DNA from: an uncultured Gammaproteobacteria bacterium
GTDB taxonomy: Bacteria; Patescibacteriota; Microgenomatia; Levybacterales; UBA12049
Assembly: GCA_964521295.1 (NCBI GenBank)
Contig: CAZFRF010000001.1
Location: 206,146-270,145 of the forward strand
Reading direction: 5' to 3'
Length of the DNA stretch: 64,000 bases
The notes under the pieces are model-generated. The model had not been told where the DNA came from, did not search any database, and saw nothing but the letters and a program-made list of their open reading frames with translations. The position numbers and the translations under genes were made by a program. This document shows positions 3,170 to 59,759 of this stretch, piece by piece (position 1 is the stretch's first letter; every line of letters begins with the position of its first letter).

Positions 3170-3255
3170 AAATGAGGCTATTATGCAATATTATAGGTTA
3201 CTTAGTTTACTAAAGAAGTTAAACTTCCGATTGATAAGTAGATAGAAAGTGTTGT

Positions 3256-7242: not shown

Positions 7243-8607
7243 ATGATTTTCTTAAAAAGAAGAAGATTAATTTTCTGGTTAATAAAAGCCTATATCAAAA
7301 GGTGGAGAAAAACTATTTTAATTTCCTTTGTTTTTGGGCTGATTGCTTTCTTCCTTCTTCGCTACGGAGTAAACTATTTCGTTCCCCTACTTCCTTTTGT
7401 TCATGAAGAAAAAATTGGAATTGAAGGCGCTTATACAATTGATACATTACCTTCGACAATTATTTCTAAAGTTTCTGTTGGTTTAACTAAATTTGACGCA
7501 AATTATAAACCAATTCCAGGTGTTGCTAAGAAATGGGAAATAAAAGATAACGGTAAGACATACATTTTTTATCTCAAAGATAATATTAATTTCAGCGACA
7601 AGACAAAACTTACTTCAGACTTAATAAAATACAATTTTATAGGTGTAAATACACAAACACCTAATGACTCAACAATTGTTTTTAGACTCAAAAATAGCTA
7701 CGCGCCATTTTTGGTTACCGTAACTAGACCAATTTTTAAATCAGGGTTTGTAGGAATTGGAGATTATAAAGTTCAATCGGTTAAGTTAAATGGAGATTTT
7801 GTACAATCAATTACTTTAAGATCTCTAAAACAACAAAAAACTGTTTTAATTTATCAATTTTATCCCACTCAAGAAGCTTTAAAGACAGCTTTTGTTTTAG
7901 GGGAAATTGATAAGGCAATCAATTTAACAGATGTTAAGTTTAAAGATACTTCTTTTGAAAAGTTTCAAGGAGTAAATGTTTCCAGAAGGCTTGATGATCA
8001 AAACTTAGTAACTCTTTTTTACAATACAATTGATAAAAATTTATCAGATAAAAGACTTAGAGAGGCAATTGCCTATGCTATTCCCGATAAGTTTATGCAA
8101 GGATACAGAAATCATGGTCCTTTTTCTCCAAAATCATGGGTAAATAGTCCAAATTTAGCAACGTATACTCAGGATTTTGAACACGCAAAGCTTTTACTGG
8201 ATAATTCCGATTCATTTAAAGCAAATAAAAATGGGATTGCGTTTGAATTAAAAACTTTTCCTAAGTATGAGAGCTTAGCTAAAATTATTCAAAATAATTT
8301 AAAGAAATTAAATATACATATCAAAATTACCGTTGTTGATTCTCTGCCTACACAGTTTCAAATGTTTTTAGGCGATTTTAGGGTTCCTAGAGATCCAGAT
8401 CAATACATACTTTGGCATTCTTCCCAGGAAGACAATATTACAAAATATAAGAATTTAAGGATTGATAAGCTTTTAGAAGACGGAAGAGAAGTTAATTCAA
8501 TAGAAGAAAGAAAGAAGTTGTATACAGATTTTCAGAAGTACTTACTTGATGATCCTCCCGCAACTTTTCTTTTATTCCCCTATCTCTTTGATGTTAGTAG
8601 AAAGTAG
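7243..8607 (+). CDS. ABC transporter substrate-binding protein, family 5 (oligopeptide/nickel type), apparently short at the C-terminus
   Basis: N-terminal TM anchor. SBP_bac_5-like blocks GLTKFDANYKPIPGVAKKWEIKDNGKTYIFYLKDNINFSD and downstream conserved segments. At 454 aa it is shorter than typical family-5 SBPs. Its 3' end overlaps uvrC tail-to-tail. Confidence 0.65.
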   Translation: MIFLKRRRLIFWLIKAYIKRWRKTILISFVFGLIAFFLLRYGVNYFVPLLPFVHEEKIGIEGAYTIDTLPSTIISKVSVGLTKFDANYKPIPGVAKKWEIKDNGKTYIFYLKDNINFSDKTKLTSDLIKYNFIGVNTQTPNDSTIVFRLKNSYAPFLVTVTRPIFKSGFVGIGDYKVQSVKLNGDFVQSITLRSLKQQKTVLIYQFYPTQEALKTAFVLGEIDKAINLTDVKFKDTSFEKFQGVNVSRRLDDQNLVTLFYNTIDKNLSDKRLREAIAYAIPDKFMQGYRNHGPFSPKSWVNSPNLATYTQDFEHAKLLLDNSDSFKANKNGIAFELKTFPKYESLAKIIQNNLKKLNIHIKITVVDSLPTQFQMFLGDFRVPRDPDQYILWHSSQEDNITKYKNLRIDKLLEDGREVNSIEERKKLYTDFQKYLLDDPPATFLLFPYLFDVSRK

Positions 8608-9862
8608 CTTTTGATCTAAGTTTTTTGTGATAAGTAATTGCGAATCTATGCGCCTCATCCCTTATTTTCATAATCATAAGTAGTGCTTTAGAATCTTTTG
8701 GTAGCTTTATTTCTTGTAAGTCACTTGTAATAATTGTCTCTTCTCTCTTAGCTAAGCCAATAACCGGAATATTAACTTGTAATTTATCGAGTATTTCTTT
8801 TGCGCTTGAGACTTGGCCTTTGCCACCATCGATTAAGAATAAATCAGGTAATTGCCAAGAATTATGAAGTCTTCGTTCAATAACTTCTTTAATCATTCCA
8901 AAATCATTAGGTAGATTATTAAAATCGCTTTTTATTTTGAATCGTCTATATTGAGATTTATCTATATTGCCGTTTGTCAGGACAACCATAGAGGCTGTTG
9001 GATTAGTTCCTTGAGTATTTGAAATGTCATAACATTCAATTCTGTCTAGTTTTTTTACCCCTACTCCATTGGTATTTAATATTTCAATTAAAGAATTTAG
9101 TTGGGAAAAAATTACATCATCTTTTAAGTTAGGATTTTCCTCATATTCAAATGGTTTATAAAAAGGACTAGTGATTAGTTTAATTGCGTCAATTTTAACT
9201 TGAAATTTTCTTGCTTCTTCAAAATCTTCATTTTTACTTAATCTTTCTCTTTCTTTTTCTAAATCTTTAATAACATTTTTTGATTTACCATTCATAAAAT
9301 CAATAATGTGTTTTATGGTTTTTGTGTAATTGATATCATTTGTTACTTCAGGACAAGGACAAAGCCCTAAATGATTATATAAGCAAATTCTATTTCCATG
9401 ATTTATAACTGATTTATAGGGAAAGATTTTACGAAGTAATTTTAAAACAGTTCTTAAAGACGTCGCACTGGTAAATGGGCCAAAATACAATGCCTTAGAA
9501 TCGTCCATTTTTCTAACTACTAAAACTGCTGGATATTTATCTTTATAATTTATTTTTAAATAGGGAAAAGATTTATCATCTTTTAGAAGAATGTTGTATT
9601 TGGGTTTATGTTTCTTAATTAATCTTTCTTCAAGTAAAAATGCTTCAATTTCTGAAGTTACACTGATAGTTTTTATTTGCTTAATCTGCTCTACGAGGGC
9701 TTTGGTTTTTTCGCCTAAATCTTTATTTAGAAAGTAACTAGAGACTCTCTTCTTGAGGTTTTTTGCTTTCCCACAATAAATTATTCTCCCTTCTTCGTTT
9801 AAAAAAAGGTAGATGCCTGTATCCTGCGATAATGATCGATAGTCCGAAGATTGTACTAACAA
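8594..9862 (-). CDS. uvrC: Excinuclease ABC subunit C (UvrC), short form lacking the C-terminal (HhH)2 domain
   Basis: GIY-YIG motif GIYLFLNEEGRIIYCGKAKNLKKRVSSYF, Cys-rich segment, and the RNase-H-like endonuclease block ending DEAHRFAITYHKKLRSK. The protein stops about 8 aa after the block, where other UvrCs carry about 100 aa of HhH. The TTG start at 9862 overlaps the upstream gene by 125 nt, so the start is uncertain. Confidence 0.8.
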   Translation of the reverse strand: MLVQSSDYRSLSQDTGIYLFLNEEGRIIYCGKAKNLKKRVSSYFLNKDLGEKTKALVEQIKQIKTISVTSEIEAFLLEERLIKKHKPKYNILLKDDKSFPYLKINYKDKYPAVLVVRKMDDSKALYFGPFTSATSLRTVLKLLRKIFPYKSVINHGNRICLYNHLGLCPCPEVTNDINYTKTIKHIIDFMNGKSKNVIKDLEKERERLSKNEDFEEARKFQVKIDAIKLITSPFYKPFEYEENPNLKDDVIFSQLNSLIEILNTNGVGVKKLDRIECYDISNTQGTNPTASMVVLTNGNIDKSQYRRFKIKSDFNNLPNDFGMIKEVIERRLHNSWQLPDLFLIDGGKGQVSSAKEILDKLQVNIPVIGLAKREETIITSDLQEIKLPKDSKALLMIMKIRDEAHRFAITYHKKLRSKATFY

Positions 9863-14525: not shown

Positions 14526-14587
14526 AGTCGAAGCTATATTATAGACTAAAAAATTAGATATGAAAAGAGTAGTAGTTGAGCTAAGGC

Positions 14588-24304: not shown

Positions 24305-25852
24305 TTATGTTATGCCGCCATCGTCTAGTGGCCTAGGACACCTGGTTTTCAGCCAGGGAATCAGGGGTTCGACTCCCCTTGGCGGTACTAAAGTTGTTTT
24401 TTCTACGTTGGCATTAGCGATTAGCTTGAAAGGAAGGCCTAACTCCTCGGTTCCAATATCATCATCTTTATAATAAATACCTTTTGGAAACAAAAGCTGT
24501 TGGAATCTTAACTTTTGATCAAAGGGTGCATCTAGCCATATTGTAGATACCTTCTTAAATAACTCTTCAGAAAGACTCATTAAATAGTCTATGTCTGCGT
24601 CAATGTTCTTAATTTCGTCTCTTTCCACTTCGTTGGTGACAATATTAGCTTTGACGATTTCCATTTGTTCTTTAAAATCATCATCTGAGATTATTCCTTT
24701 TAAATTCTTTTCAAGCAACATTTGCCTTCGAATGTTAAGATTATGTAGGCCTTTATCTATTCTTGCTTTATCTACAAGTACTGACTGTTGTTTCATTTTC
24801 CAAACATCTGTCAATATTTCCTTAAAAAGTTTAATAAATGCTTCATTAGGTTGTATTTGCTTTAATAAATAAATAAAAGATTCTTCTAGGCGTTCTTTTC
24901 TTACTCGTGTTTCTCCGCAAATGCAATGGTAATAAGCGTATTTGTTTGATCGTCCCGTAGACTTGCTTCCTGTTAAATTCTTACCACATGAAAGACACTT
25001 TGCAATTCCTCTTAATGGAAACTCAGGATTGTTAACTATCCTTGGAACTGCTGACACCGATCTTCCCTCACGTACCATCTGAGCCCTCTGAAATAAGTTA
25101 GGTGAGATTATTTTCTCATGTAAGCCTTCTTGCTCATCCCAGTCTTTTACCTTGATTATGCCCATATAAAGCTTGTTCTCTAAAATTTTGGTAACTGTTT
25201 GAGGAGACAATTTATTGTCTTTCTTGGTTCTTACGCCCCATTTATTAAATCTGTCAGTAATTTGTTTTATTGAATAGTTGCCCGAAGCATAAAGCTCAAA
25301 AGCTTGACGAACAAATGTAGCATTTTTTTCATCTATCACCATTCCAGTTGGAGTATTTCTATATCCTAATGGAGGAGCCCATGCCCATAGACCTTGTCTT
25401 ACGCGTTCCTTAAGACCTTCCCGCGTTCTGTCTGCTCGAACATCATTATCGAATTGAGCAACTGCAGCAAACATATTTTCTAAGAATTTTCCAGTCGAAC
25501 TTTCATCAATATTTTCATTCACTGATCTTAGAACAACACCGCATCTTGATAATGCAGCTCTAATGTAATGATGATCGTCCGCTTGCCTTGCAAACCTATC
25601 TATTTTGTGGACTAACACAGCATCTACTTTACCTTTGTTCTTTATGCAATATTCAAGCATTTTGCCAAGCTGAGTTCTATCAGCTGATCTAGCTGATTCT
25701 CCTTGTTCTTCAAATATTTGAAGAACATTCCAGCCCTGCTTTTCAGCATACTCGCTACATAGTTTTCTTTGAGAATCGAGACTATAACCCTGAAGCTGTT
25801 CTTTAGAGCTTACTCGGGTATAGACAACAACATTCATAATACTCTTACTCAT
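24305..25852 (-). CDS. Large serine recombinase (resolvase/invertase-type integrase)
   Basis: N-terminal resolvase domain VVVYTRVSSKEQ...GYSLDSQR with conserved Arg/Asp residues, recombinase domain, zinc ribbon CLSCGKNLTGS...YYHCICG and a coiled-coil tail. The last 28 or so codons are the antisense of tRNA-Glu, so the attachment site is embedded at the gene's 3' end. Confidence 0.85.
   Translation of the reverse strand: MSKSIMNVVVYTRVSSKEQLQGYSLDSQRKLCSEYAEKQGWNVLQIFEEQGESARSADRTQLGKMLEYCIKNKGKVDAVLVHKIDRFARQADDHHYIRAALSRCGVVLRSVNENIDESSTGKFLENMFAAVAQFDNDVRADRTREGLKERVRQGLWAWAPPLGYRNTPTGMVIDEKNATFVRQAFELYASGNYSIKQITDRFNKWGVRTKKDNKLSPQTVTKILENKLYMGIIKVKDWDEQEGLHEKIISPNLFQRAQMVREGRSVSAVPRIVNNPEFPLRGIAKCLSCGKNLTGSKSTGRSNKYAYYHCICGETRVRKERLEESFIYLLKQIQPNEAFIKLFKEILTDVWKMKQQSVLVDKARIDKGLHNLNIRRQMLLEKNLKGIISDDDFKEQMEIVKANIVTNEVERDEIKNIDADIDYLMSLSEELFKKVSTIWLDAPFDQKLRFQQLLFPKGIYYKDDDIGTEELGLPFKLIANANVEKTTLVPPRGVEPLIPWLKTRCPRPLDDGGIT
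24314..24387 (+). tRNA. tRNA-Glu (anticodon TTC); integration target
   Basis: GCCGCCA-TC-GTCTAGTGGCCTAGGAC-A-CCTGG-TTTTCAG-CCAGG-GAATC-AGGGGTTCGACTCCCCT-TGGCGGT-A. Anticodon loop TT-TTC-AG. Coordinates +/-2 nt. Confidence 0.85.
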
Positions 25853-26036
25853 AATTATGATTTCTTTTTGAGGCTAAATCAATACCTGTAGTTGTGTCTT
25901 TGGAACCAACGATATCTGAAATAACTCCAGCTAATTTAGTAAAGATATTTATCAATTCCTCAATTTCTCTATCGGTATACTTATCTGAAGATTTACCTAA
26001 TATTTTCCTTGCCTTCTTAACAGAAAATGGCTCCAT
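25845..26036 (-). CDS. Small hypothetical protein upstream of the recombinase (possible directionality factor or regulator)
   Basis: 63-aa ORF overlapping the recombinase start by 8 nt. No recognisable motif. Confidence 0.3.
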   Translation of the reverse strand: MEPFSVKKARKILGKSSDKYTDREIEELINIFTKLAGVISDIVGSKDTTTGIDLASKRNHNYE

Positions 26037-26121
26037 AATATTAGTATGTGGGAATATGTGGCCAAGTGTAAGATTAGGGCACTTTTTGTACTCAATTTAC
26101 AAGACAATTACGCTCAGAGGA

Positions 26122-26331
26122 TTAGATCAGATCTCTTGCTTTAGCTCCTAAAGCTTTTGCAATTTTGTTGAGAGAGTCTATACTTGGTCTACGCTGGCCC
26201 GTCTCTAATAAGCCAATGAAGGTTGTACTTAACCTTACTTTATCAGCTAATTCCTCTTGTGTTAATCCTACTTGCTTTCTCATTCTTTTTAAACGATTAG
26301 CAAAAGCTTTGTCCTTATTGGTTATTGCCAT
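26122..26331 (-). CDS. XRE-family (Cro/CI-type) HTH regulator
   Basis: 69 aa. LKRMRKQVGLTQEELADKVRLSTTFIGLLETGQRRPSIDSLNKIAKAL matches the HTH_XRE core. Divergent from two small cargo genes. Confidence 0.8.
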   Translation of the reverse strand: MAITNKDKAFANRLKRMRKQVGLTQEELADKVRLSTTFIGLLETGQRRPSIDSLNKIAKALGAKARDLI

Positions 26332-26424
26332 ATGCTAAGGCTAGCAAGAATTGGCAAATAAGTTTATTAACTACAAGTACAGATTTCATAGCTAAAACTA
26401 TTGACATTTTACTAACTGACAGTT

Positions 26425-26790
26425 ATGCTCATTCCGATGGAGAAAAATAAAAAAAATTGGTTATCCTCCTTGCTAATAGTAATTTTTGGGCCTTTTGGCA
26501 TGTTCTTTTGGGGTTTACGAGTAGGATTAGCTTCTCTAGTAGGAATTGCTGTCTTTATACTAATAACAACTATTTTAAGCTATGGAGTAGATATCAAATA
26601 TCAACTCCTCATAAGGATTGTTTACTTAATCATTCACGTTAAATTATTAAGAATGGATGATCAAGAGACCGAAAACCTAAGACATATAGGAGTCAAAGAG
26701 TTCTTATACCTGTCAAGCATGATTCTTTTAAACTTCCTTTTTTTTGGATTCCTGGGATTTATTGCTATTTCAATATTGAAGAGGTTCTAG
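26425..26790 (+). CDS. Small membrane protein (island cargo)
   Basis: 121 aa with three TM helices. No motif. Confidence 0.4.
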   Translation: MLIPMEKNKKNWLSSLLIVIFGPFGMFFWGLRVGLASLVGIAVFILITTILSYGVDIKYQLLIRIVYLIIHVKLLRMDDQETENLRHIGVKEFLYLSSMILLNFLFFGFLGFIAISILKRF

Positions 26791-27156
26791 ATGAAAAACA
26801 AAATTATAGCTATTTTTGTTTTGACGATTATTGTATTCGCAATAACAGTGTTTGACATTAATCATACAATATCCAAGTTTGAAGCTGAGCAGCTTGTGAA
26901 GTCCCAATCTGAAGTCGCAAAATTAACAGCAGATACTACAATAAACTGGCATGTTGATGCAATTAATAAAGAAGATTATTGGATAGTTCAGGTTTATCAA
27001 GTTGTTCAGTATAAAGATCATCCGGAAAACAATCATGAGTCTACATTTAATTGGTACAAAGTTGATAAAAAATCTGGTCAAATTACCTGCTCTATGTTCT
27101 TATATGATTCAAAAGGTGTATTAAATAAAAATGGGAAAGTAAATAATTGCTACTAG
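26791..27156 (+). CDS. Small secreted/anchored protein (island cargo)
   Basis: 121 aa with an N-terminal signal/anchor and a Cys pair. ATG overlaps the stop of the previous gene. Confidence 0.4.
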   Translation: MKNKIIAIFVLTIIVFAITVFDINHTISKFEAEQLVKSQSEVAKLTADTTINWHVDAINKEDYWIVQVYQVVQYKDHPENNHESTFNWYKVDKKSGQITCSMFLYDSKGVLNKNGKVNNCY

Positions 27157-27325
27157 ATGTCTTCTTTCTAACGACTAGCTTATCGGTTCAAGACACGATC
27201 AGTAATCTTGAAATGAGACGAAGTTCTGACTTTAAAGCTATTTAAATTTGTAAAAATCCCCTCAAACGTCTATAAACTATAAATCCTGCGGTACTAATCT
27301 TGACTACGAAGGTTTTTAAACTCTA

Positions 27326-27360
27326 GCTATGTAATACATTACATGTATTTAATTACACAG
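27326..27360. repeat. Third, more divergent copy of the TGTAAT/ATTACA palindromic motif (ctatGTAATACATTACATGtatttaattacacag)
   Basis: TGTAAT-AC-ATTACA at 27330-27343, followed by an inverted gtgtaatt half-site. Confidence 0.45.
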
Positions 27361-27475
27361 CTAATAATTTTGCAATTAAATAACTTTACTATCTTATAAT
27401 ATCATACTTTAGCTTCAATTGTAAGAAATCTGCGCCAGTAAATAGCTTCTTCTTTACTTTGTTCAAGATACTGCT

Positions 27476-27520
27476 GGGACTCCCAAGCGTTTTTAATGTG
27501 TAATCATTACATGTTTTGAT
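27476..27520. repeat. Imperfect direct repeat copy A (gggactcccaagcg...ttaatGTGTAATCATTACATGtttt) containing the palindrome TGTAAT-C-ATTACA
   Basis: Compared by eye with copy B at 30913-30960. Both share gactcc, tttta and GTGTAATC[A/G]TTACAT in the same order. The palindrome lies at 27499-27511. Confidence 0.6.
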
Positions 27521-27571
27521 GGTATATATTTATGTCAATACAATCATGAAATGGGATCTATCTGCGTAAGA

Positions 27572-28765
27572 CTAATTGAGTGGTGCGTCAGGCTTACTTA
27601 TGTTCTTAATTAATTCTACAAGCTTTGCTGCTTTATTATCAAAATATTCTTTATAGAATTGGCTTGAATTCATTTGAATAATTTCAATCTTCTCTGGACT
27701 TATTTGCTTAACGTTATAGATTTTGCTACTTATATCTGACTCTTGTATTCTTTTTATTTTATCAGCAATTTTCTTTGATATTTCTTTAGGATTTTTTTCA
27801 CCCTTAAATGGAGAAACAATTATTAGTTTTTTTTCAGGATATTTATTTACAGATTCAATAATTAAATTATTGATATATGTGTCAAAAAAGCTATATCCGA
27901 TTATAATAAAGAAATCTCTTTCATCAAGAATTTCTTTGAATCGAAAGGTCAAGCTAAGAAAAGGGTCGACAGATAACATTTTCGCCTCTTGTCCAAATAT
28001 TAGAAGTGGAATAAATGAGGTGAGGGGTAATTTATCTTCTTTTCTAACTTGTCCCTTCATTATTTCATCGTCAACACCTGCTATAGATTTTGTCCAGTTT
28101 AAAGAACCGTGTATTTTGTAGTAATTCATCCTATATTTTTCAACCTGATCTTGGCTATCAAACGCATTTTGCCAATCTCCTGATTGAAAACCATCGTTCA
28201 ATACAGTTTCAGCTGATGTGTTAAAGAATTTTTCAAAAACAAGATCATAGTTTATTGTAAAAAAATCCAGAACAAATGGTTTATCGCTAGTATCAGTAAG
28301 AAATTGTTTAACTGGAGTAAGTAACGTCTGTGATTTGGGAGCATCAAAAGATAACCAATTTGGTAGATATGTATATTCAATCTTAGAAAGCAAAGTCTTA
28401 AAAACATCTTGTTCCCTATACTCAAATTTTAATATCTTTTCACTCCAATTGCCTACCATCGGATGAGGAATTATATAGTCACGATTGACAATTTTTCTTA
28501 AAAGAAATACAAATTCTTCGATATTTGGAATATAATCCGTTTGCTTTGAAGCAATATTTTTCCAACTTTTTTGGTATTCAAGACAAGAAATAATAAATCT
28601 AAAAATTTCAACTTCATCCTTATTTCCTTCATGCTCTATTATTCGACCAAGGTCATCAATCATCATTTTTGAAGTTTTACAACCAGCCTCAACCGTAGCG
28701 CCCGCTCCTGTAAAAAAAACTACCTTTTTTGATAATTCTTCAAGTGTCATGCTTAAATAAACCAA
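27572..28765 (-). CDS. Sir2-family (DHS-like NAD-binding) effector protein, pAgo-associated
   Basis: N-terminal VVFFTGAGATVEAG (cf. Sir2 GAGIS-x-SGIP NAD-binding loop). TINYDLVFE (cf. TQNIDxL). YYKIHGSLNW (cf. the catalytic-His motif LHGSxxW of Sir2 NADase domains in ThsA/DSR/SPARSA). The start overlaps the pAgo stop by 13 nt. About 150 aa of C-terminal extension of unknown fold. Confidence 0.7.
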   Translation of the reverse strand: MVYLSMTLEELSKKVVFFTGAGATVEAGCKTSKMMIDDLGRIIEHEGNKDEVEIFRFIISCLEYQKSWKNIASKQTDYIPNIEEFVFLLRKIVNRDYIIPHPMVGNWSEKILKFEYREQDVFKTLLSKIEYTYLPNWLSFDAPKSQTLLTPVKQFLTDTSDKPFVLDFFTINYDLVFEKFFNTSAETVLNDGFQSGDWQNAFDSQDQVEKYRMNYYKIHGSLNWTKSIAGVDDEIMKGQVRKEDKLPLTSFIPLLIFGQEAKMLSVDPFLSLTFRFKEILDERDFFIIIGYSFFDTYINNLIIESVNKYPEKKLIIVSPFKGEKNPKEISKKIADKIKRIQESDISSKIYNVKQISPEKIEIIQMNSSQFYKEYFDNKAAKLVELIKNISKPDAPLN

Positions 28766-30807
28766 AGTGTCTTTTTGGCAATCTTCGAGTTTGGTAATCC
28801 ATTTGAGAAGTAATAAGCCTTTTCGGACAACTCTTTGGCATATTCAATTGTGACTGGGACAGCTTTCTGTTTAATGGATCTCCAATACAACCTTGAAAAT
28901 TCATATACTTGGTCTAATAGGTCTATAACTTCATTTTTGTCCCTAATGTCTACGCCGTTATGAGCAGTTATAGTGATTTTTACTGGGTATTTATCATCAC
29001 CTTTATAAGTTGAGATATCGTCACTGTGTCTTTCATTATTGAATAAAATAAATACACTTTTTTTAAGTTCGACAACGGTTCCGCTAACTGGGATTTTACC
29101 AGGATAACTTTTATCAAAGCATATGTAATCTTTTGCTCTAGTATCATTTATATTAAGGACAGTATATGGAATATTTAAGTTGAGATTTTTAAATACTTCC
29201 GCTAAAGTTGCTGACTCTTTGTTTCCCCACTCTTTAAAATAATGAATTATTAATTTTTGAGGCTCTCCGTTTTCTACTATGTGATTATTAATGGCGTCTT
29301 CAAGGCTTTTTTTTAAATTTTCTTGTGTATACTCAAAGCAACTTAAATCCTTAAAAACTCCACTATTATTAAAACATACAGTATTCCCAATGTACCTAGT
29401 TCCACCAGGAGATTTAATAATTTTTTCTCCAAAACCAACCAACAAACAGTTACCTAAGTCTCTCTTTAATTTCCAAGGTATTCCTCCAACTTTAGCTAAA
29501 ATTGCAATCGCCATATTAGGAAGATAAAAATGTATAGCTTGTGATTTAAGCTTTATAGATTCAATAACCTGAGAAGTAATGTTTAAATTTAAAAGCGATT
29601 CTTTTATTTTAAAATAAATTAATTTTTCATCCTCATTTGCTGTTTCTTCGCTAAAAGGGGATATATACAATGCAACATACTTTCTTTGCGAATCAAGTGT
29701 TAAACTTTTTAAGCGTTCTTCTATCTGTTCTAGGGCAGTGTTTGAGCTTTCGAAACTAATAGAATTCTCTATATCCAAGTCGAATGGGATTTTTGAAAAA
29801 CTTTCCAATCCAGGAAAATGTCTATAACCATATTTGAAATATTTATATAGACTATTAGCTATATCTTTATCCGTTTTTGAATAAATAAATATAAACTTAA
29901 CTTTATCTACATCTTCGGGTACAAAATACGGTCCGTAATTTGAGAAACCACGATATGGGTCATACTCAGTTTTTCCTTCCCCGAATTCTAGCAAATTTTT
30001 TTCTCTAGGAATTTCGATTATTTCGCTTTCTTTAAGCTCTCTTAGTCCAGATGCTAGAACCTGAACTCCCCGTGCTATATCTTTTCCTTTTAAGTGTGAT
30101 TCATAAAAAGTTGTTATTAAGCTGTAATGATTTATAAAAGAAAAGTCTTTTGACGATGCAAATGATAATCTAAGATTAGAATCAATTTCTCTATTGAGTA
30201 ATGGCTTGCCGGTTTTGATTATCTCCTCGTCTAAAAATTTTGTTCTGAAAATCTCCTTGTCTAGTAAAACTTTCTTAACAGTTTGATGTTCTAAATTTAG
30301 TTCTGAGATAGATTGTTTATGTATTTTGGAATTTTGACTTCCTAATCCAATCGTTAAGTAGTATTTGTCAAACTGTTTATCAATTTTTAAATTCCATACG
30401 TTATACTCATAATAATCGTCTGTTGTTGCTGGCTGCTTTTTTTCCCAAATCTCCAGATCATCAATGAAATTGGATGCTGTAATAAATTCTTTATGCTGGA
30501 AATAGGATTTAAATTTTGAGGAGAGATACAATGGAATAAAAAATGGTTCTTTTTCAAGATTAAATGTAAATTGCTTCAATTCATTGTCTGCCTCCTCTTT
30601 TTCAAATTTTATACTTACGTGACTATTCTGATGAGCAATCGAGTTTAAATAAGATGCAAAATCGGTACTAGTGTTATTTAGGTTTCGTAGGAGATAATCT
30701 ATGGTAAAAACACGTGAGAATTTGTAGTCTTTTCCCGGCTTAAAGAATATATCTATCGAATCTTTTGGATACGTTATTAATACTTGATTAATTAGTAATT
30801 GCGACAT
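28753..30807 (-). CDS. Prokaryotic Argonaute (pAgo) with catalytically inactive PIWI domain
   Basis: C-terminal PIWI block AIAILAKVGGIPWKLKRDLGNCLLVGFGEK contains the hallmark KxGGxPW/NW motif. The position of the first catalytic Asp (GxDVxH) is occupied by GFGEK, and no RDG motif follows (LIIHYFKEWG). The MID-like region is YVALYISPFSEE...KLIYFKIKES. The roughly 370-aa N-terminal region fits either N/L1/PAZ*-L2 or a fused APAZ. Confidence 0.72.
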   Translation of the reverse strand: MSQLLINQVLITYPKDSIDIFFKPGKDYKFSRVFTIDYLLRNLNNTSTDFASYLNSIAHQNSHVSIKFEKEEADNELKQFTFNLEKEPFFIPLYLSSKFKSYFQHKEFITASNFIDDLEIWEKKQPATTDDYYEYNVWNLKIDKQFDKYYLTIGLGSQNSKIHKQSISELNLEHQTVKKVLLDKEIFRTKFLDEEIIKTGKPLLNREIDSNLRLSFASSKDFSFINHYSLITTFYESHLKGKDIARGVQVLASGLRELKESEIIEIPREKNLLEFGEGKTEYDPYRGFSNYGPYFVPEDVDKVKFIFIYSKTDKDIANSLYKYFKYGYRHFPGLESFSKIPFDLDIENSISFESSNTALEQIEERLKSLTLDSQRKYVALYISPFSEETANEDEKLIYFKIKESLLNLNITSQVIESIKLKSQAIHFYLPNMAIAILAKVGGIPWKLKRDLGNCLLVGFGEKIIKSPGGTRYIGNTVCFNNSGVFKDLSCFEYTQENLKKSLEDAINNHIVENGEPQKLIIHYFKEWGNKESATLAEVFKNLNLNIPYTVLNINDTRAKDYICFDKSYPGKIPVSGTVVELKKSVFILFNNERHSDDISTYKGDDKYPVKITITAHNGVDIRDKNEVIDLLDQVYEFSRLYWRSIKQKAVPVTIEYAKELSEKAYYFSNGLPNSKIAKKTLWFI

Positions 30808-30912
30808 ATAAGTAAATTGTAAATATATTTTACTACATTTCTATACGCCTTACATTATACTCTGTTAACATCTAAACACTGGTATTGATTTAATCCGATT
30901 TAAGTAACATTG

Positions 30913-30960
30913 AGACTCCTTGGGGTCTTTTAGCTCATGGTGTGTAATCGTTACATATTT
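30913..30960. repeat. Imperfect direct repeat copy B (gagactccttggggtcttttagctcatgGTGTAATCGTTACATattt) containing the palindrome TGTAA-TCG-TTACA
   Basis: See copy A. Copies A and B bracket the pAgo-Sir2 operon (27572-30807). The gactccttgggg segment resembles the tRNA-Glu 3' end gactccccttggcgg. Confidence 0.6.
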
Positions 30961-31119
30961 AAGAAAGAAAAAAAGAAGCAAAAAAAGAAAGAATATTTTT
31001 AAATTTTATTAAACTAAAGGACTAATAGACAAAGGCTGGTGTGAGGCTAGGTCTAATGATTGTCTGCCATTGCTCAAGGCTGCTGCGTATTTGGTTCCAA
31101 TTCTCTATAATTTGGGGTA

Positions 31120-32451
31120 CTAAATAACTTCTAATCCTTTGCTTTCGTTATGAACATGTTTAACCATTTTTTCTTGATAGACACGCACTCCTTCTTTTTG
31201 TGGCACGCTATATGAACCATATAAAATATTTCCTTTATATATGCTTGTAATACCTTGATAGATTAAGCTAAGTAATCTATTTTCACCAGTAATTTTATAA
31301 TTCGCTCTAACTATATCTGGAAGTTCTTCTAAAACTCTTCCAAGATTAAGTCCTTCAACTGCTCTTTTAACTCCTAACCAAAATGCATCAGCTAAGAATT
31401 CAAAATCAACTCTTGGTCCATCATAAGTCATAGTATCTGCCATTGCTCTTATTGTTGAATCAATGTTTCCCACTTGAGTAGCGATGTGGTGTGGATAGTC
31501 AAACCATGTGTATGGATGATCAAGATACATGCTTTTTCCGACAGCCTCTAAATCAAGTTCTTCACCCATAGTGGAGACATTACGTGCTAAATTTTGCCAA
31601 GCAGGTCCACCAGAACACATTTGAAAACCTTCAGTAATTAAGGGAAGCTCTTGACCAACTACTTTTTGCGAAACAAATCTTAAATAAGAACTTAAATCTG
31701 GCTTAGAGACTCCTTCGGCTTTTGCAAATTGATCAAGAACAAATTCTCTGTAGGGTGGAATTACTAAACGCTGTCTTCTTTCGTACATAGTTACTGAATC
31801 TAGTAATCTAAAGTTACTTTTTGATGCTCTAACTAGAATTACTGGTTTTCCTCTAAAGAACCCGCTTGATCTTAAAACACTTGGAGGAAGATAATCGCCA
31901 TTTAGATCAGGTAGTTGGGTAATTTCATAAATTCCTAAGATTTTTTCAGTATCCAATCCTCTTTCTGTAAAATGATCAACTCCAACTGATTCTTGCATAG
32001 CATCTCTTGCTTCTAGCTCTCCATAGCCATCGTAAAATGGGTATCTTGCCATTGGTTCTCGCATATCCATATAGCCTCTATATGCGACCGAACCATTTCT
32101 AGCAATTGTTGTAGCGCCAACCCCTTTAAAATTAACGACATATTCCTTGCCATCAATTTCTACAGTTTCATCAGCTTCTAATACTCTTCCGCATTCATAT
32201 GGACTTGACATGATTTTAGTTAAAGCCTGTAAGTCAGTAGAAAAACCAGCATACATATCCGGAGTAACAACGACTCTAAGTCCGCCTTCAACTACTGCTC
32301 TAATCTGAGGGTTGTTGGTGACTAGCGGAGACTCATATAGTGCGCTAGTCATAGCCGGCAATGTATATTCAATATTCGCATGGATTCTGTTATTGCCGTA
32401 AACAGCTAGCACTCTTGGATTAGTTGATATTCTTTCTTTACTTCTATTCAT
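31120..32451 (-). CDS. Uncharacterised 443-aa protein, paralog 1 of a tandem pair
   Basis: Long ORF. About 45-50% identical by eye to the adjacent 443-aa ORF, with shared blocks NIEYTLPA, SSP(Y/F)ECGRVLEAD, V(N)xKGVGAT, LVRASKS(N/H)FRLLDSVTMYER, PLIT(E/Q)G, W(Q/K)NLARNVS and GEELDLEAV. Higher GC than surroundings. No family recognised. Confidence 0.6.
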   Translation of the reverse strand: MNRSKERISTNPRVLAVYGNNRIHANIEYTLPAMTSALYESPLVTNNPQIRAVVEGGLRVVVTPDMYAGFSTDLQALTKIMSSPYECGRVLEADETVEIDGKEYVVNFKGVGATTIARNGSVAYRGYMDMREPMARYPFYDGYGELEARDAMQESVGVDHFTERGLDTEKILGIYEITQLPDLNGDYLPPSVLRSSGFFRGKPVILVRASKSNFRLLDSVTMYERRQRLVIPPYREFVLDQFAKAEGVSKPDLSSYLRFVSQKVVGQELPLITEGFQMCSGGPAWQNLARNVSTMGEELDLEAVGKSMYLDHPYTWFDYPHHIATQVGNIDSTIRAMADTMTYDGPRVDFEFLADAFWLGVKRAVEGLNLGRVLEELPDIVRANYKITGENRLLSLIYQGITSIYKGNILYGSYSVPQKEGVRVYQEKMVKHVHNESKGLEVI

Positions 32452-32452
32452 G

Positions 32453-33784
32453 CTATTTAAATAAAGCCTTTTTCTCTTTGGCTATCTGATCAACCATTGT
32501 TTTTCTATATATCCAACCGCCTTCTGGTGGTGGAGTTCTATATGTATCTGTAAATACCATATGAATATATGCATACTCAATGGCATCAAAAATTCCTTTA
32601 AAAAGTGAATCAGGACCTGTAAAATTGAATTGTCTACGTACATTTTGGGTCATTGTTCGTAAAACAGCATGTAAATCCAAATTAGCAAGACTACCTCTAA
32701 GTCCTTCCCAAACCATGAGCGCTAAGCTATCAAAATCTACTTTAGGGCCACCATCAGTAATTGTGTCTGCAAAGCCCCTAAGCGCCTTATCTATATTCAT
32801 TACATGGTTTGTGACATGATCTTTATAATCGAAAGGAACAGATTGTGATAAATAATCTTTATGTGGCTCTACTGCTTCTAAATCAAGTTCTTCACCTAAA
32901 ACTGAAACATTTCTGGCCAAATTTTTCCATTTTGTCTTTCCTGCAGACATTTCATATCCTTGAGTAATTAATGGCACTTCTTGCCTGAACAATTTTTGAG
33001 TCAAATATCTCAAATATGTATCCATATCTCCAGGTTGTCCTTCAGCCTTATGAAATTGTTCTAAGATTAGCTCTCTTAAACCAGGAATATAAAATTGCAT
33101 TTGTCTTTCATACATAGTTACTGAATCAAGTAGCCTAAAATGACTCTTTGACGCTCTTACTAAAAGAGTAGGTTCTGTAGAAAGTCTATTTTCTTGTTTT
33201 AATACTGCTGGAGAAGTATATTCACCATCTACTCCTGGCATTCTCAGGATTCTATAGATTCCCAAAACTTTTTCTGTATCAATACCTTGCGCTCTTAAGT
33301 CAATTGCATTATCTCGTTCAGACTGTGCATAACGAGCATCTAGTTCGCCAAAACCATGATAAAAAGGATAGACTGCTAAACGATTAAGTACAGCAGTATT
33401 ATTTTCAAAAGCTATTTCACCGTTTCTAAAGACTGACGTTGCGCCAACCCCTTTAATATTTACTGTATACTCGACTCCGTCAATCATGACTGTTGGATCT
33501 GCCTCTAAAACTCTTCCGCATTCAAAAGGACTAGACATAACTGTAACGTCTGCCCTAGCTGCTGGAAGTAATCTAAAATATGTTTGAGGTAAGATTATTA
33601 CTCTTAAATTATCATGGACAACCCTTCTTACATTCGGATCATCAGTTACAGTAAAGGATTCATATTGAGTAACTGTGGTTGCGGGTAATGTATATTCAAT
33701 ATTTGGCACCGTTGATGGACCATATACTCTTGCGATACGGGGATTAGTTGTAATTAATGGTAAAAACTCTTTTGGTTGAGCCAT
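32453..33784 (-). CDS. Uncharacterised 443-aa protein, paralog 2 of a tandem pair
   Basis: See paralog 1. The stop of paralog 2 is 1 nt from the start of paralog 1. Confidence 0.6.
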   Translation of the reverse strand: MAQPKEFLPLITTNPRIARVYGPSTVPNIEYTLPATTVTQYESFTVTDDPNVRRVVHDNLRVIILPQTYFRLLPAARADVTVMSSPFECGRVLEADPTVMIDGVEYTVNIKGVGATSVFRNGEIAFENNTAVLNRLAVYPFYHGFGELDARYAQSERDNAIDLRAQGIDTEKVLGIYRILRMPGVDGEYTSPAVLKQENRLSTEPTLLVRASKSHFRLLDSVTMYERQMQFYIPGLRELILEQFHKAEGQPGDMDTYLRYLTQKLFRQEVPLITQGYEMSAGKTKWKNLARNVSVLGEELDLEAVEPHKDYLSQSVPFDYKDHVTNHVMNIDKALRGFADTITDGGPKVDFDSLALMVWEGLRGSLANLDLHAVLRTMTQNVRRQFNFTGPDSLFKGIFDAIEYAYIHMVFTDTYRTPPPEGGWIYRKTMVDQIAKEKKALFK

Positions 33785-46696: not shown

Positions 46697-47323
46697 TTAA
46701 AATTTTCTAACTAAACCTACCACCTTACCCTGAATAGTTAACTTTGTAGGATAAATAGGAGACATTTCTGAATTTGCAGGTTTTAAAACTACTCTACCAT
46801 TCTCTTTATAGAACTTTTTAAGAGTTGCCAAATTATCGTCAACCATTGCGACAACAATTTCTCCATTTGTTGCTTCAGAAACTTTTTCAATTACAACAAA
46901 ATCTCCATCTAATATTCCATCTTCTATCATTGACCTTCCTTTGACCTGTAAGACATACGCAGTATTCTTTCCCGACAAAAGACTAGCAGAAACATAAAAA
47001 GTTGCATTGGGATCAGTATGCGGCTCCAGCGGTTGTCCTGCAGCGATAAATCCCATAAGTGGTAATTCAATTGCTGGCTTACTTCCCAAAAGCGACATCT
47101 GTACCTTATCGTCTACAATTTTTAAGACCCGAGTATTACCATCTACTTTTTGCACATAACCTTTTTCAACTAACGATCTAATAAGAGTGTGTACTGTAGA
47201 ATTTGATCTGTGTCCTGTACCTTGAGCAATTTCTGTTAAAGTTGGGGAATAGCCGTATTGACGCTGAAACTGAGCTAAAAATTCTAAAACTTCTCTTTCT
47301 TTTTTATATAGAACTCCGGGCAT
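46697..47323 (-). CDS. lexA: LexA repressor
   Basis: Winged HTH N-terminus (LTEIAQGTGHRSNSTVHTLIRSLVEKGYV). Cleavage site LAAGQP (Ala-Gly). S24 peptidase VKGRSMIEDGILDGDFVVIEK with downstream Lys. Confidence 0.9.
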   Translation of the reverse strand: MPGVLYKKEREVLEFLAQFQRQYGYSPTLTEIAQGTGHRSNSTVHTLIRSLVEKGYVQKVDGNTRVLKIVDDKVQMSLLGSKPAIELPLMGFIAAGQPLEPHTDPNATFYVSASLLSGKNTAYVLQVKGRSMIEDGILDGDFVVIEKVSEATNGEIVVAMVDDNLATLKKFYKENGRVVLKPANSEMSPIYPTKLTIQGKVVGLVRKF

Positions 47324-47340
47324 ATGTATATTTTATACGA
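47324..47340. promoter_or_regulatory. Candidate LexA operator (palindrome aTGTATAtttTATACga) abutting the lexA start codon
   Basis: Inverted repeat GTATA-N3-TATAC, reminiscent of CTGT-N8-ACAG-type SOS boxes (TGTAT...ATACg). Position is appropriate for autoregulation and for the divergent gene. The spacing differs from the E. coli consensus. Confidence 0.3.
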
Positions 47341-54163: not shown

Positions 54164-55969
54164 TTGAATTATCTTCAAGGCTCTGGTATGATTTTTCCAA
54201 TGAGCAACCAAGAAATTGCTAAGCTTCTGGAAAACGTTGCTACAGCCTACATTATTAAAGACGAAAAGAAATTTAAATTTCAACTTCTTGCTTATCAAAA
54301 AGCAGCGGAAACTGTCAGAAATTTAAACAGAGAACTCGTTGATTACTACAAAGATAACGAACTAGAATCTCTTCCCGGAATTGGACCAACTCTAAGAGGA
54401 CATTTAATTGATCTGTTTAAAAATGGTGAAGTTAAACATTTTGATTGGGTATTAGATGGAATACCTAAATCTGTTTTTGTCTTAACCGATATTCCAACCT
54501 TTGGTCCTAAAAAAGCCTATCGCTTGGTTTCCCAATTTAATTTAACTGATCCCAAAACTGTCATTGAAGATTTGAAAAAAATTGCTGAAAAAGGAGAAAT
54601 CGCCAAACTCGAAGGATTCGGAGATAAGTCACAAGCCGACGTAATAAGAGCAATTAATGAATTTAAAGAAGGAAAAGGCAAAACGACCAGAATGATTCTC
54701 CCTTATGCATATGAAGTTGCTCAGAAATTAATTGAGTATATGCAAAAAAATCCTGACGTTGACAGAATCGAGGCCTTAGGTAGTTTTAGGAGGAGACAAT
54801 CTACAGTAGGAGATTTGGATTTTGCCGTTGCCACAGCAAAACCTAAAGAAGTAATTGAATATTTTGTAAATTACCCATCTAAGGAAAGAATTATCGAAAA
54901 AGGCGATGTCTCAGCTTCAATTTTAGTAGCCGGAGGAAGGCAAGTTGATTTACTCATTCAACCCAAGGGAGCATTTGGATCTTTACTTCAGCATTTCACA
55001 GGCAGTAAAAATCATAATGTCGCGTTAAGAGAATATGCTCTAAAAAAGAATTTATCTCTTTCAGAATATGGAATAAAAAATTTAAAATCAAAAGACAAAG
55101 AAATACAGCAATATGCTGATGAAGAAAAGTTTTACAACGCAATTGGACTTTCGTTTATCCCACCAGAAATTAGAGAAAATACAGGAGAAATAGAATTAGC
55201 TGAAAAAAATAAATTACCTAAGCTCATTGAGCTAACTGATATTAAAGGAGACTTTCATATTCACTCAAGTTTTCCCATTGAACCAAGTCATGATTTAGGA
55301 CAAAACACAATGGAAGAGATGTTGACAGTTGCAAATGATCTAGGCTATGAATATTTAGGATTTTCTGAACATAACCCAAGTACCTCCAAACATACAAATG
55401 AACAAATTTATTACCTGATTAAAAGACGCAATGATTTAATTGATAAACTTAATTCAAGTAAAAAATATATTCGAATATTTAAATTGCTCGAAACTGATAT
55501 CTTGCCTTCAGGCGAGCTTGCAGTAGATGATAAGGCGCTTGAACTACTAGACGCATCAATTGTTTCCATTCATAGTGTTTTTAAAATGGACAAAGACAAG
55601 ATGACAGATAGAGTCATAAAAGGTCTTTCTCACCCAAAAGCCAAAATTCTTGCCCATCCTACCGGTAGACTCTTAAATGATAGATTTGGTTATGAGTTAG
55701 ATTTTAAGCGGATTTTTAAATTCTGTAAAGAAAATAATAAAGCCCTAGAAATTAATAGCTGGCCCCAAAGATTAGATCTTCCCGATTCACTAGTAAAAGA
55801 AGCAATTGAAAACGGAGTGAAACTGGTAATAGACAGCGATAGTCATGCTGCAAGTCAAATGAATCAACAAAAATATGGTGTCTTTGTTGCTCGAAGAGGA
55901 TGGGCAAAAAAAAGTGACATAATTAACTCATTCAGTTATAATGAAATTACTGACTGGTTCAGTAAATAA
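54164..55969 (+). CDS. DNA polymerase X family protein with C-terminal PHP phosphoesterase domain (PolX)
   Basis: HhH motifs (LPGIGPTLRGHL, LEGFGDKSQADV). Pol beta nucleotidyltransferase motif GSFRRRQSTVGDLDFAV. PHP domain GDFHIHSSF... with downstream His/Asp clusters. Confidence 0.85.
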   Translation: MNYLQGSGMIFPMSNQEIAKLLENVATAYIIKDEKKFKFQLLAYQKAAETVRNLNRELVDYYKDNELESLPGIGPTLRGHLIDLFKNGEVKHFDWVLDGIPKSVFVLTDIPTFGPKKAYRLVSQFNLTDPKTVIEDLKKIAEKGEIAKLEGFGDKSQADVIRAINEFKEGKGKTTRMILPYAYEVAQKLIEYMQKNPDVDRIEALGSFRRRQSTVGDLDFAVATAKPKEVIEYFVNYPSKERIIEKGDVSASILVAGGRQVDLLIQPKGAFGSLLQHFTGSKNHNVALREYALKKNLSLSEYGIKNLKSKDKEIQQYADEEKFYNAIGLSFIPPEIRENTGEIELAEKNKLPKLIELTDIKGDFHIHSSFPIEPSHDLGQNTMEEMLTVANDLGYEYLGFSEHNPSTSKHTNEQIYYLIKRRNDLIDKLNSSKKYIRIFKLLETDILPSGELAVDDKALELLDASIVSIHSVFKMDKDKMTDRVIKGLSHPKAKILAHPTGRLLNDRFGYELDFKRIFKFCKENNKALEINSWPQRLDLPDSLVKEAIENGVKLVIDSDSHAASQMNQQKYGVFVARRGWAKKSDIINSFSYNEITDWFSK

Positions 55970-55984
55970 AGGAGGTGACCACAT

Positions 55985-56533
55985 ATGAACTTAGTAATAA
56001 TCGGAATAATAATTTTAGCGATACTTGCATTCGTTTGGTTTCTTTACAACAGCATAATTGTTGCTAAATTAAGAATCTCTGAAGCTCTTTCGCAAATCGA
56101 TGTTCAGCTAAAAAGAAGGACAGATTTAATCCCAAACTTAGTTGAGACCGTAAAAGGTTATGCAAAACATGAAAAAGAATTATTTGAGAAAGTTACAGAA
56201 GAAAGATCAAAATTAATAACTGCTTCATCAACAGGTGAAAAAGCAAAAGTTAATAACGAACTTTCCCAAACTCTTAAATCAATTTTTGCTATTGCTGAAA
56301 GCTATCCTGACTTAAAAGCAAGCCAAAACTTTTCAGAACTTCAAGCAGAAGTTTCAGATACGGAAAACAAAATAGCTTATGCGCGACAATTCTATAATTC
56401 TGTTGTATTAGACTACAACACTAAATTAAAGCTATTTCCAAACGTTTTAATAGCTGGACTTCTTAATTTTAAAGAAGCAGAATTTTTTGCTGCAACCGAA
56501 GAAGAAAAGAAAGGTGTAAAAATTAGTTTTTAA
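55985..56533 (+). CDS. lemA: LemA family protein
   Basis: N-terminal TM then LemA conserved blocks (ESYPDLKASQNF, LQAEVSDTENKIAYARQFYNSVVLDYNTKLKLFPNVLIAG). Confidence 0.85.
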   Translation: MNLVIIGIIILAILAFVWFLYNSIIVAKLRISEALSQIDVQLKRRTDLIPNLVETVKGYAKHEKELFEKVTEERSKLITASSTGEKAKVNNELSQTLKSIFAIAESYPDLKASQNFSELQAEVSDTENKIAYARQFYNSVVLDYNTKLKLFPNVLIAGLLNFKEAEFFAATEEEKKGVKISF

Positions 56534-56536
56534 TCC

Positions 56537-57439
56537 ATGAATATTTATTCTGCAATAACTGCAAATAAAAATAAAACGTGGTTAATAATGTTACTTTTTG
56601 TGCTTATTATCACCACTATTGTTTATGTATTTAGTAAGGCAATGGGCTATGGAATTGGTTTTGCTGGCATTGCTCTAGTCTTTGCTGGAATTACCAGTAT
56701 TGGCAGCTACTATTACTCAGATAAACTTGTGTTGGCAACAAGTGGCGCAAAAGAAATTGTTAAAAGCGATAGTCCTGAATTATTTAGAATAGTTGAAAAT
56801 CTAGCAATTGGCGGTGGTCTACCTATGCCAAAGGTATACATTATTCACGACGCTGCTCCCAATGCCTTTGCCACTGGCAGAGATCCTAAGCATGCAGTGG
56901 TCTGTGTTACGACAGGTCTTTTAGAATTAATGAACAAAGCTGAACTTGAGGGTGTAATTGCCCATGAACTTTCTCATGTCAAAAACTATGACATAAGACT
57001 TATGGGTATTGTGGCAATTTTAGTTGGTTTTATAGCAATAGCTTCAAACATGTTCACTAATCATCTGTGGTTCGGTGGAATGGGAAGAGATAGTGACGAC
57101 AACAATAACAGATCTACTCCAATCTTTTTAATCATAGGTATTGCTTTGGCAATACTTTCCCCTATTGCTGCGACGATAATTCAACTAGCAATCTCAAGAA
57201 AAAGAGAATTCTTAGCCGACGCATCCGGAGCTTTGCTTACCAGATATCCAGAAGGCCTTGCTTCAGCTTTAGAAAAGCTAGATCAGTATCCAAGATCTTT
57301 AAAATCAGCAAATAATGCCACAGCTCATCTTTTTATTGTTAATCCTTTTAAAGGAAAAACTGCCAAACAATGGTTTACCTCACTGTTTGACACCCACCCA
57401 TCTATTGAAGAACGCGTAAAAGTATTGCGTTCTATGTAG
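56537..57439 (+). CDS. htpX: Zinc metalloprotease HtpX (peptidase M48)
   Basis: Four TM helices. HEXXH as IAHELSHVKNYD. Downstream Glu (EFLADASGA). C-terminal FDTHPSIEERV. Confidence 0.9.
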   Translation: MNIYSAITANKNKTWLIMLLFVLIITTIVYVFSKAMGYGIGFAGIALVFAGITSIGSYYYSDKLVLATSGAKEIVKSDSPELFRIVENLAIGGGLPMPKVYIIHDAAPNAFATGRDPKHAVVCVTTGLLELMNKAELEGVIAHELSHVKNYDIRLMGIVAILVGFIAIASNMFTNHLWFGGMGRDSDDNNNRSTPIFLIIGIALAILSPIAATIIQLAISRKREFLADASGALLTRYPEGLASALEKLDQYPRSLKSANNATAHLFIVNPFKGKTAKQWFTSLFDTHPSIEERVKVLRSM

Positions 57440-57440
57440 C

Positions 57441-59467: not shown

Positions 59468-59474
59468 TAGCTTC

Positions 59475-59759
59475 ATGAAAGTAAACATTAAAACAGTTGC
59501 AAAACTTGCAAATCTACACCTAACTTCAGAGGAGGAAGAAAAATTTGCAAAACAATTAGAAGAAACCGCTACTTATGTTGAAGAACTAGAAGAAGTTGAC
59601 ACTAAAGACGTTGAAGCAACAAGTCAGGTTACGGGTTTGGAGAATGTATTAAGGGAAGATATTGCAAAACCCTCATTGTCTCAAGAGGATGCACTTAAAA
59701 ACGCCAAGGAAACACATAATGGTTTTTTCAAAGTGAAAGGAATTTTGCAAAATGAATAA
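59475..59759 (+). CDS. gatC: Asp/Glu-tRNA amidotransferase subunit C
   Basis: MKVNIKTVAKLANLHLTSEEEEKFAKQLEETATYVEELEEVDTKDVEATSQVTGLENVLRED is the classic GatC pattern. The track ORF starts at 59406, but the Met at 59475 is the likely start. Confidence 0.85.
   Translation: MKVNIKTVAKLANLHLTSEEEEKFAKQLEETATYVEELEEVDTKDVEATSQVTGLENVLREDIAKPSLSQEDALKNAKETHNGFFKVKGILQNE

Follow-up and report, generated by a model that had tools for sequence, protein, structure and literature searches.

A palindromic repeat private to one genomic island lies at the joints of its pAgo–SIR2 cargo

Introduction

BPAS is an abortive-infection system composed of a long-B pAgo and a Sir2 protein (PMC10620215). The tycheposons of Prochlorococcus are small, mosaic cargo elements at tRNA genes, which contain remnants derived from attachment (att) sites and repeat-bounded cargo (bioRxiv 10.1101/2020.12.28.424599). 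Here we analyse a locus with traits of both: a pAgo–SIR2 operon in a stretch of 64,000 nucleotides (positions 206,146 to 270,145 of contig CAZFRF010000001.1, assembly GCA_964521295.1), which is referred to as the window and whose own numbering is used throughout. The operon is bracketed by two copies (A and B) of a short palindrome, a third copy (C) lies nearby, and each palindrome is embedded in a longer module. The modules are a real, non-random repeat, which is private to one island and placed at the joints between its cargo blocks. Judged from its sequence, the operon is the cargo of that island, 6.7 kb in length, which a large serine recombinase (LSR) has inserted into a tRNA-Glu gene. 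Our tentative reading is that these are terminator-like boundary modules whose arrangement reflects the assembly of the cargo. The island itself is a concrete and testable vehicle for the mobility of Argonaute defence operons in little-studied, small-genome Patescibacteria-like bacteria.

As in BPAS, the bracketed two-gene operon consists of a full-length pAgo gene followed by a gene for a SIR2_2-domain effector, and the same pair is found at homologous loci. A further trait of BPAS is a PIWI domain which has lost its DEDX tetrad and is catalytically inactive. Both genes are on the − strand. The pAgo (28753..30807, 684 amino acids) matches the PADLOC pAgo model at 4e-160 over residues 2-684 and contains the Pfam Piwi domain; the effector (27572..28765, 397 amino acids) matches Aga_SIR2 at 1e-63 and contains Pfam SIR2_2. 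These matches confirm the identity which an earlier note on this DNA had given to the operon. The difference concerns the flanks: neither the palindromic motif nor any flanking repeats of the module kind are seen at nine homologous pAgo–SIR2 loci.

The likeness to tycheposons is that of a cargo island sited at a tRNA gene, and repeat-bounded cargo blocks are found in two related islands, L028 and L033 (L numbers denote the relatives' loci compared with the window: L006, L019, L020, L028–L037 and L039). Unlike the tycheposon remnants, which are partial tRNA copies, the modules described here are not demonstrably derived from tRNA-Glu or from the att arms. Also, the recombinase here is a serine recombinase, whereas most tycheposons have a tyrosine recombinase.

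Sequence and distribution of the repeat modules

The three palindromes are GTGTAATCATTACATG (A, 27498–27513), GTGTAATCGTTACAT (B, 30942–30956) and TGTAATACATTACA (C, 27330–27343); all three are found where the earlier note had placed them, with A and B in the same orientation outside the two ends of the operon. A is a perfect 6-1-6 palindrome and B a perfect 5-3-5 palindrome (TGTAA-TCG-TTACA), and the spacing of their half-sites is identical. C is a 6-2-6 palindrome within a 40-nt inverted repeat (27324–27363), with one base more between its half-sites. The pattern TGTAAT-N(1-3)-ATTACA has two matches in the window against 0.04 expected, a number reached in none of 100 shuffles. The exact 15-mer GTGTAATCRTTACAT occurs in the 64 kb at 27498 and 30942 only, that is, at the bracketing sites.

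Each palindrome is part of a homologous module of ~50–80 nt, in which GACTMC, a T-run and the palindrome follow each other on the + strand. The prefix which the earlier note had described as gactcc...tttta is real: of the five GACTMC-N3-12-TTTTAR matches in 128 kb (both strands), three lie directly upstream of a palindrome, one each for A, B and C. Module C (27283..27365, + strand; nhmmer match 27285-27359) contains GACTAC, a T-run and TGTAAT-AC-ATTACA, which is the palindrome itself. Module A (27459..27530, + strand) consists of a hairpin at 27472-27489 (−6.7 kcal/mol), GTTTTTAA, the palindrome and TTTT, and copy A lies 59 nt beyond the SIR2 stop codon. Module B (30895..30975, + strand) consists of a hairpin at 30912-30929 (−7.0 kcal/mol), TTTTAG and the palindrome, and copy B lies ~135–150 nt upstream of the pAgo start codon.

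The imperfect direct repeats of ~45 bp proposed earlier hold when copy C is taken as a bridge, since the A–C and B–C alignments each extend over ~42–53 nt; between A and B alone, only the palindrome block of 16–20 nt is significantly similar. The left side of C is similar to A, and its right side to B. The A and B palindromes match at 15/16 positions with dyad symmetry kept, adjoining positions have diverged, and the flanks of the modules have decayed to ~60–70% identity.

Concerning their placement, C and A lie between the gene pair p121a/b and the SIR2 gene, and B lies between the pAgo gene and the conserved right end of the island. The p121a/b genes (26425..27156, + strand) encode two orphan proteins of 121 amino acids and form the only + strand operon of the island, which ends 138 nt before copy C; no homologues of p121b were found anywhere. 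C and A are thus within the 415-nt gap where this operon converges on SIR2.

When the window and all fetched loci were scanned with a profile built from the three copies, no fourth copy was found, and in the window the module is confined to 27283–30975. Dispersed repeats such as repetitive extragenic palindromes or miniature inverted-repeat transposable elements would have many copies throughout a genome. The motif is absent from six close sister islands and from 80 further, more distant LSR loci (885 kb), and the sister islands contain no recurring palindrome of their own. A scan of a viral collection gave 22 matches, all in A+T-rich contigs without the module and the best within an open reading frame (ORF) of 491 amino acids; these are chance-like. 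The earlier note had proposed recombination or regulatory sites and had itself named absence from homologous islands as a refutation; as the motif is absent there, the reading as a conserved site of either kind fails.

Two other origins were considered for the modules. Coding remnants are rejected on inspection: the copies do not share their stop-codon frames, no − strand frame is open in C, and the − strand mini-ORFs are unconserved. Of these, AAGGAG-N5-ATG in module B (30865-30981) opens an ORF of six codons (MLLKSD), and GGGAG in module A (27389-27466) lies 13 nt before a TTG ORF of 25 codons; neither is conserved between copies. Small RNA genes with their 3' limits at the hairpins of the modules are also rejected: the folds are no better than those of shuffles, and no Rfam covariance model reaches its gathering score on the modules (best E-values 0.4–7).

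Island limits and attachment sites

The island extends from 24389 to 31120. Its integration target is a tRNA-Glu(UUC) gene (24314..24388, + strand), which ends in the attL core GGTAC (24384-24388), and its true right end is attR (31023..31120, + strand), where the conserved P arm GGTTCCAATTCT-N10-TTGGGGTAC ends in the second GGTAC core (31116-31120); the crossover lies within GGTAC. The P arm, which is found at 31095–31120 in the window, is on the far side of each island and is conserved in six relatives. Two nhmmer profiles, both built from relatives without the window sequence, find these sites alone: the attL profile (tRNA end and element arm) has its sole match at 24378–24458 (E 3e-23) and the P-arm profile at 31023–31120 (E 7e-18). 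In L029 the sequence after GGTAC, ATTATTT, is the trailer of an unoccupied tRNA-Glu gene in another Levybacteria genome, L019, which confirms the junction between island and host. The 3' half of the window tRNA-Glu gene matches almost solely Patescibacteria assemblies.

At A, B and C both att profiles are silent, and the modules have no significant similarity to the tRNA, attL or attR. The palindromes lie 3.0–6.6 kb inside the left junction, and B, the nearest to the right junction, lies 160 nt inside it. Copy C is abutted by the 10-mer GCGGTACTAA (27288..27297, + strand), an exact copy of the tRNA-Glu 3' end. A reading of copy C as a displaced native tRNA flank, that is, a tRNA-derived att remnant, was considered on this basis and rejected: the att profiles give no support at the 10-mer, and together with the P arm they place attR elsewhere. 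The 10-mer, which is identical to the tRNA-Glu 3' end plus trailer, has three occurrences in the window against ~0.1 expected.

The LSR (24305..25852, − strand) is 515 amino acids long, and in the integrated state the tRNA-Glu gene lies antisense to the codons of its last ~27 residues. Upstream of it lies the gene of a conserved protein of 63 amino acids (25845..26036, − strand), which is present in all sister islands. Joining the right end of the island to its left end, as in an excised circle, adds ~32 codons to the recombinase ORF, with the tail VPQIIENWNQIRSSLEQWQTIIRPSLTPAFVY. This tail (VPQ.F.NWNQI..SLEQW...) is encoded on the − strand of the right end of the island (31022–31120), and is conserved at protein level in L028, L029, L033 and L034. 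The recombinase ORF crosses attP, in the window as in L028, L029, L033, L034 and L036, and its C-terminal tail would swap on integration. The predicted attP junction is ...TTGGGGTAC|TAAAGTTG..., and the predicted empty attB is tRNA-Glu followed by TAAATAACTTC. The attP-spanning ORF of a tRNA-targeting recombinase may be a more interesting by-product of the analysis than the repeats.

Compared with the att sites of other LSRs (phiC31, Bxb1 and A118 type), those of the island are similar: a GGTAC core, arms of ~25–55 nt conserved among relatives, and a recombinase next to attP. Unlike in those systems, integration is into a tRNA gene and attP is crossed by the recombinase ORF; both features are unusual in the family. 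The TGTAAT palindromes differ from LSR att sites: they are part of the cargo, are unrelated in sequence to both arms, and have no counterpart in any of the related elements.

Possible functions of the modules

Read on the + strand, each module consists of a small G+C hairpin, a T-run, an A+T-rich palindromic hairpin and a T-rich tail. This layout is that of tandem factor-independent terminators, co-oriented with p121a/b and opposed to the pAgo–SIR2 operon. As in intrinsic terminators, the hairpins, of which each module has two, are succeeded by T-runs, and C and A lie downstream of the co-oriented p121 operon. In A and B, the first hairpin and its T-run (TTTTT and TTTT, respectively) occupy the same position in the module with different base pairings; the palindrome hairpins, of −4.0 to −10 kcal/mol, are followed by T-rich sequence. 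The hairpin of copy A is one of only four intergenic sites among the 44 hairpin-plus-T-run sites of the window. From this layout we infer that the modules would act as boundary or insulator elements, which stop + strand transcription (antisense or read-through) where one cargo block meets the next. In the same account, the operon would be bracketed as a by-product of cargo assembly: the pAgo–SIR2 block may have been placed into a short repeat array, or may have arrived with one copy. There could be a reason for insulating such an operon, because a Sir2 of the bAgaS type is toxic if expressed without its pAgo (PMC10620215).

Several observations weigh against terminator-like boundary modules and keep this reading tentative. 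The first hairpin of copy C is weak (−2.3 kcal/mol), whole-module folds are not better than those of shuffles (z −0.5 to −1.1), and a scan with a consensus terminator gave zero matches in 26000–32000. Hairpins with a T-run of similar strength form a background of ~1 per 3 kb per strand, mostly inside genes, from which the weak module hairpins are not statistically separable. Copy B follows no co-oriented gene and so has no upstream + strand gene to terminate, and the host genes in the window are without comparable terminators. Also, conservation is higher in the palindrome (15/16, A vs B) than in the hairpin with its T-run, a pattern that a protein-binding site would explain no less well than a weak A+T hairpin. 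If the modules are no more than boundary or insulator repeats, the finding is an ordinary one, namely that the cargo of a genomic island contains a non-coding repeat of its own. As regards the window as a whole, 40 of the 44 hairpin-plus-T-run sites (dG ≤ −6) are inside genes, and no canonical intrinsic terminators are seen at the 3' ends of host genes.

A protein-binding role would make the palindromes operator sites: a dimeric DNA-binding protein, either the XRE protein of the island or a host factor, would bind TGTAA-N3-TTACA and control pAgo–SIR2 or its neighbours. TetR-type operators have a 6-1-6 geometry and Fur-family boxes a 7-1-7 geometry, as in the Bacillus Zur box TCGTAATnATTACGA. 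A and B, which can be read as 6-1-6 or 5-3-5, are perfect dyads of identical spacing in diverged flanks; their size is typical of the operators of helix-turn-helix (HTH) dimers, and their core GTAAT-N-ATTAC is that of the Zur box. B also lies upstream of the operon, and the island encodes an XRE-family HTH protein of 69 amino acids (26122..26331, − strand). This is the only regulator found in the island: the earlier note had counted two XRE regulators nearby, of which only this one was found, and genes for Fur or TetR proteins were not seen in the island.

The positions of the sites and their distribution make operators of dimeric HTH repressors, as suggested in the earlier note, unlikely. A and C are downstream of two convergent operons, and B is ~90 nt upstream of the inferred pAgo promoter, the sole −10-like TATAAT (~30855–30860, read by eye); none of the three is at the promoter of a plausible target gene. 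The half-sites of C are one base further apart than those of A and B, and no further sites are found in the 64 kb. The divergent promoter region between XRE and p121 (26332–26424) contains no TGTAA or TTACA half-site, and sister islands with a ~35% identical XRE protein show no recurring palindrome. The strict dyad of A and B speaks for operators, and the regulatory reading of the palindromes otherwise has little support. The consensus sequences of Fur/Zur, cre, PadR, IHF, dif and attC were compared by eye, and none of them fits both the geometry and the genomic position of the palindromes. A reading as SOS boxes is also rejected: a host lexA gene is present in the window (46697–47323), and its upstream region is without the motif.

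Two other palindromes were seen near genes of the window. The start codon of lexA is abutted by a perfect GTATA-TTT-TATAC palindrome (47326–47338), and the region upstream of uvrA (~14540–14550) contains CTATA-A-TATAG; these may hint at the SOS box of the lineage.

The modules may also be neutral relics of a short non-coding segment which was duplicated, with C and A in tandem and B displaced by the insertion of the operon; they would have no present function, and the conservation of the palindrome would be sampling noise. Such an origin is consistent with a repeat of only three copies, private to one island, with flanks at ~60–70% identity and with no structure, RNA family or coding signal, in an organism known from a single clonal sequence. 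It does not readily account for two features: the 15/16 match of A and B, with the dyad kept and the neighbouring positions diverged, and the hairpin and T-run, which are retained through different pairings in A and B. We regard neutrality as unlikely.

Less probable still is that A and B are sites of cassette recombination, either attL/attR-like products of insertion or excision sites of the pAgo–SIR2 cassette, used by an enzyme other than the island recombinase. The direct repeats lie exactly at both ends of the operon with their highest identity at the palindrome, C is like A on the left and like B on the right, and direct-repeat-bracketed cargo is known from the sister islands. The bracketing of a discrete gene module by short palindromic sites also recalls the pdif modules of Acinetobacter and integron attC sites. 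The cassette-boundary sites proposed in the earlier note are borne out to this extent, that the copies are at the joints of cargo blocks; they are not the sites of the neighbouring recombinase, whose GGTAC att sites are found elsewhere.

The arguments against cassette recombination concern both the enzyme and the sites. No second recombinase or transposase was found when ~56 ORFs, which represent the island and its flanks as well as most of the window, were compared with Pfam, and there is no Xer-type recombinase, integron integrase or tyrosine recombinase among the scanned window ORFs (54164–63891 excluded in both cases). The modules are without similarity to LSR att sites, and the motif is missing from the nine homologous pAgo–SIR2 loci and from 86 related LSR loci. 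On inspection, the symmetric part of 13–15 bp with a centre of 1–2 nt does not match the geometry of Xer/dif, attC or resolvase/invertase sites, or of any other known class of site. Unlike pdif sites, which are inverted, the copies here are direct, and geometry and consensus differ; Xer/dif sites have two arms of ~11 bp and a centre of 6–8 bp (11-6-11), and on inspection the outer arms here match at only 6/11 positions; the R''/R' boxes of attC (RYYYAAC ... GTTRRRY) are absent at the modules on inspection. The junction predicted for an A × B deletion is ...GTTTTTAATGTGTAATC|GTTACATATTTAAG..., and the Logan contigs of the source organism, which are all 100% identical to the window and represent a single clonal sequence, include no deletion or empty-site variant. 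A wider form of the idea is very improbable: the modules would be working sites of cassette exchange, recognised as hairpins or by a dimer, through which small tRNA-integrated LSR islands of Patescibacteria would take up and release defence operons with an integron-like logic and without an integron integrase.

Finally, the reading of the palindromes as crossover sites of the neighbouring LSR, suggested by a short palindrome whose 1–2-nt centre is superficially like a serine-recombinase core and by a recombinase gene 1.5 kb away, is refuted by the sequence comparisons: the true att sites, whose arms are conserved in six relatives, are at 24384–24388 and 31023–31120, the coding of the tail is preserved across the predicted attP junction, the att profiles are silent at all three copies, and none of the 86 related LSR loci contains the motif.

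Sister islands and neighbouring genes

The recombinases of L028–L036 are 53–71% identical to that of the window, and the 3' ends of their genes likewise overlap an oppositely oriented tRNA-Glu gene. The same tRNA-Glu overlap is found for the more distant recombinases of L006 (23–25% identity) and L039 (38%), whereas that of L037 (38% identity) overlaps a tRNA-Arg gene instead. The tRNA-Glu targets of the related recombinases have UUC or CUC anticodons. Taken together, the recombinases of L006, L028–L037 and L039 appear to be a tRNA-targeting clade of LSRs.

The left flank of the island, which consists of an MscS-like gene and tRNA-Lys, is common to L028, L029 and L034; elsewhere the window, with 33% G+C, contains scattered single tRNA genes. 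Only the recombinase end and 31003–31124 are conserved with the sister islands, and 26332–31021 is variable cargo. In L006, a pAgo–SIR2 operon which is 48% identical and has the same orientation is found in an island whose recombinase is only ~25% identical. A pair of 11-mers in L006 was rejected as a candidate flanking repeat, being partly in coding sequence and probably due to chance.

Sister islands in which cargo is bracketed by direct repeats are L028 and L033, and mosaic assembly is therefore common among islands of this family. The repeats of L028 (5815-5904 and 6553-6672) are a functional attR and a decayed copy outside it, between which a single methyltransferase gene lies; those of L033 are 78 nt long (2350-2427 and 3175-3252) and surround a ParE/PhdYeFM pair.

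L006 contains an inverted repeat of 109 nt, 99% identical (8071-8178 and 9628-9736), which flanks the recombinase gene next to the pAgo–SIR2 operon. It is made up of a degenerate 3' half of tRNA-Glu and the 3' end of the recombinase gene, and may be either a switch that works by inversion or an artefact of the assembly. In L020, which is from Levybacteria, a partial copy of the T-arm and acceptor (GTTCGACTCCCCTTGG) lies ~70 nt downstream of an intact tRNA-Glu gene, and looks like a scar left at this target by a previous integration.

Just outside attR of the window island lie two tandem paralogues of 443 amino acids (31120-32451 and 32453-33784), which have no match in Pfam, NCBIfam, PHROGs or PADLOC, and of which p443a is not on record. 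They are 46% identical to each other, and the att core overlaps the first gene at its stop codon.

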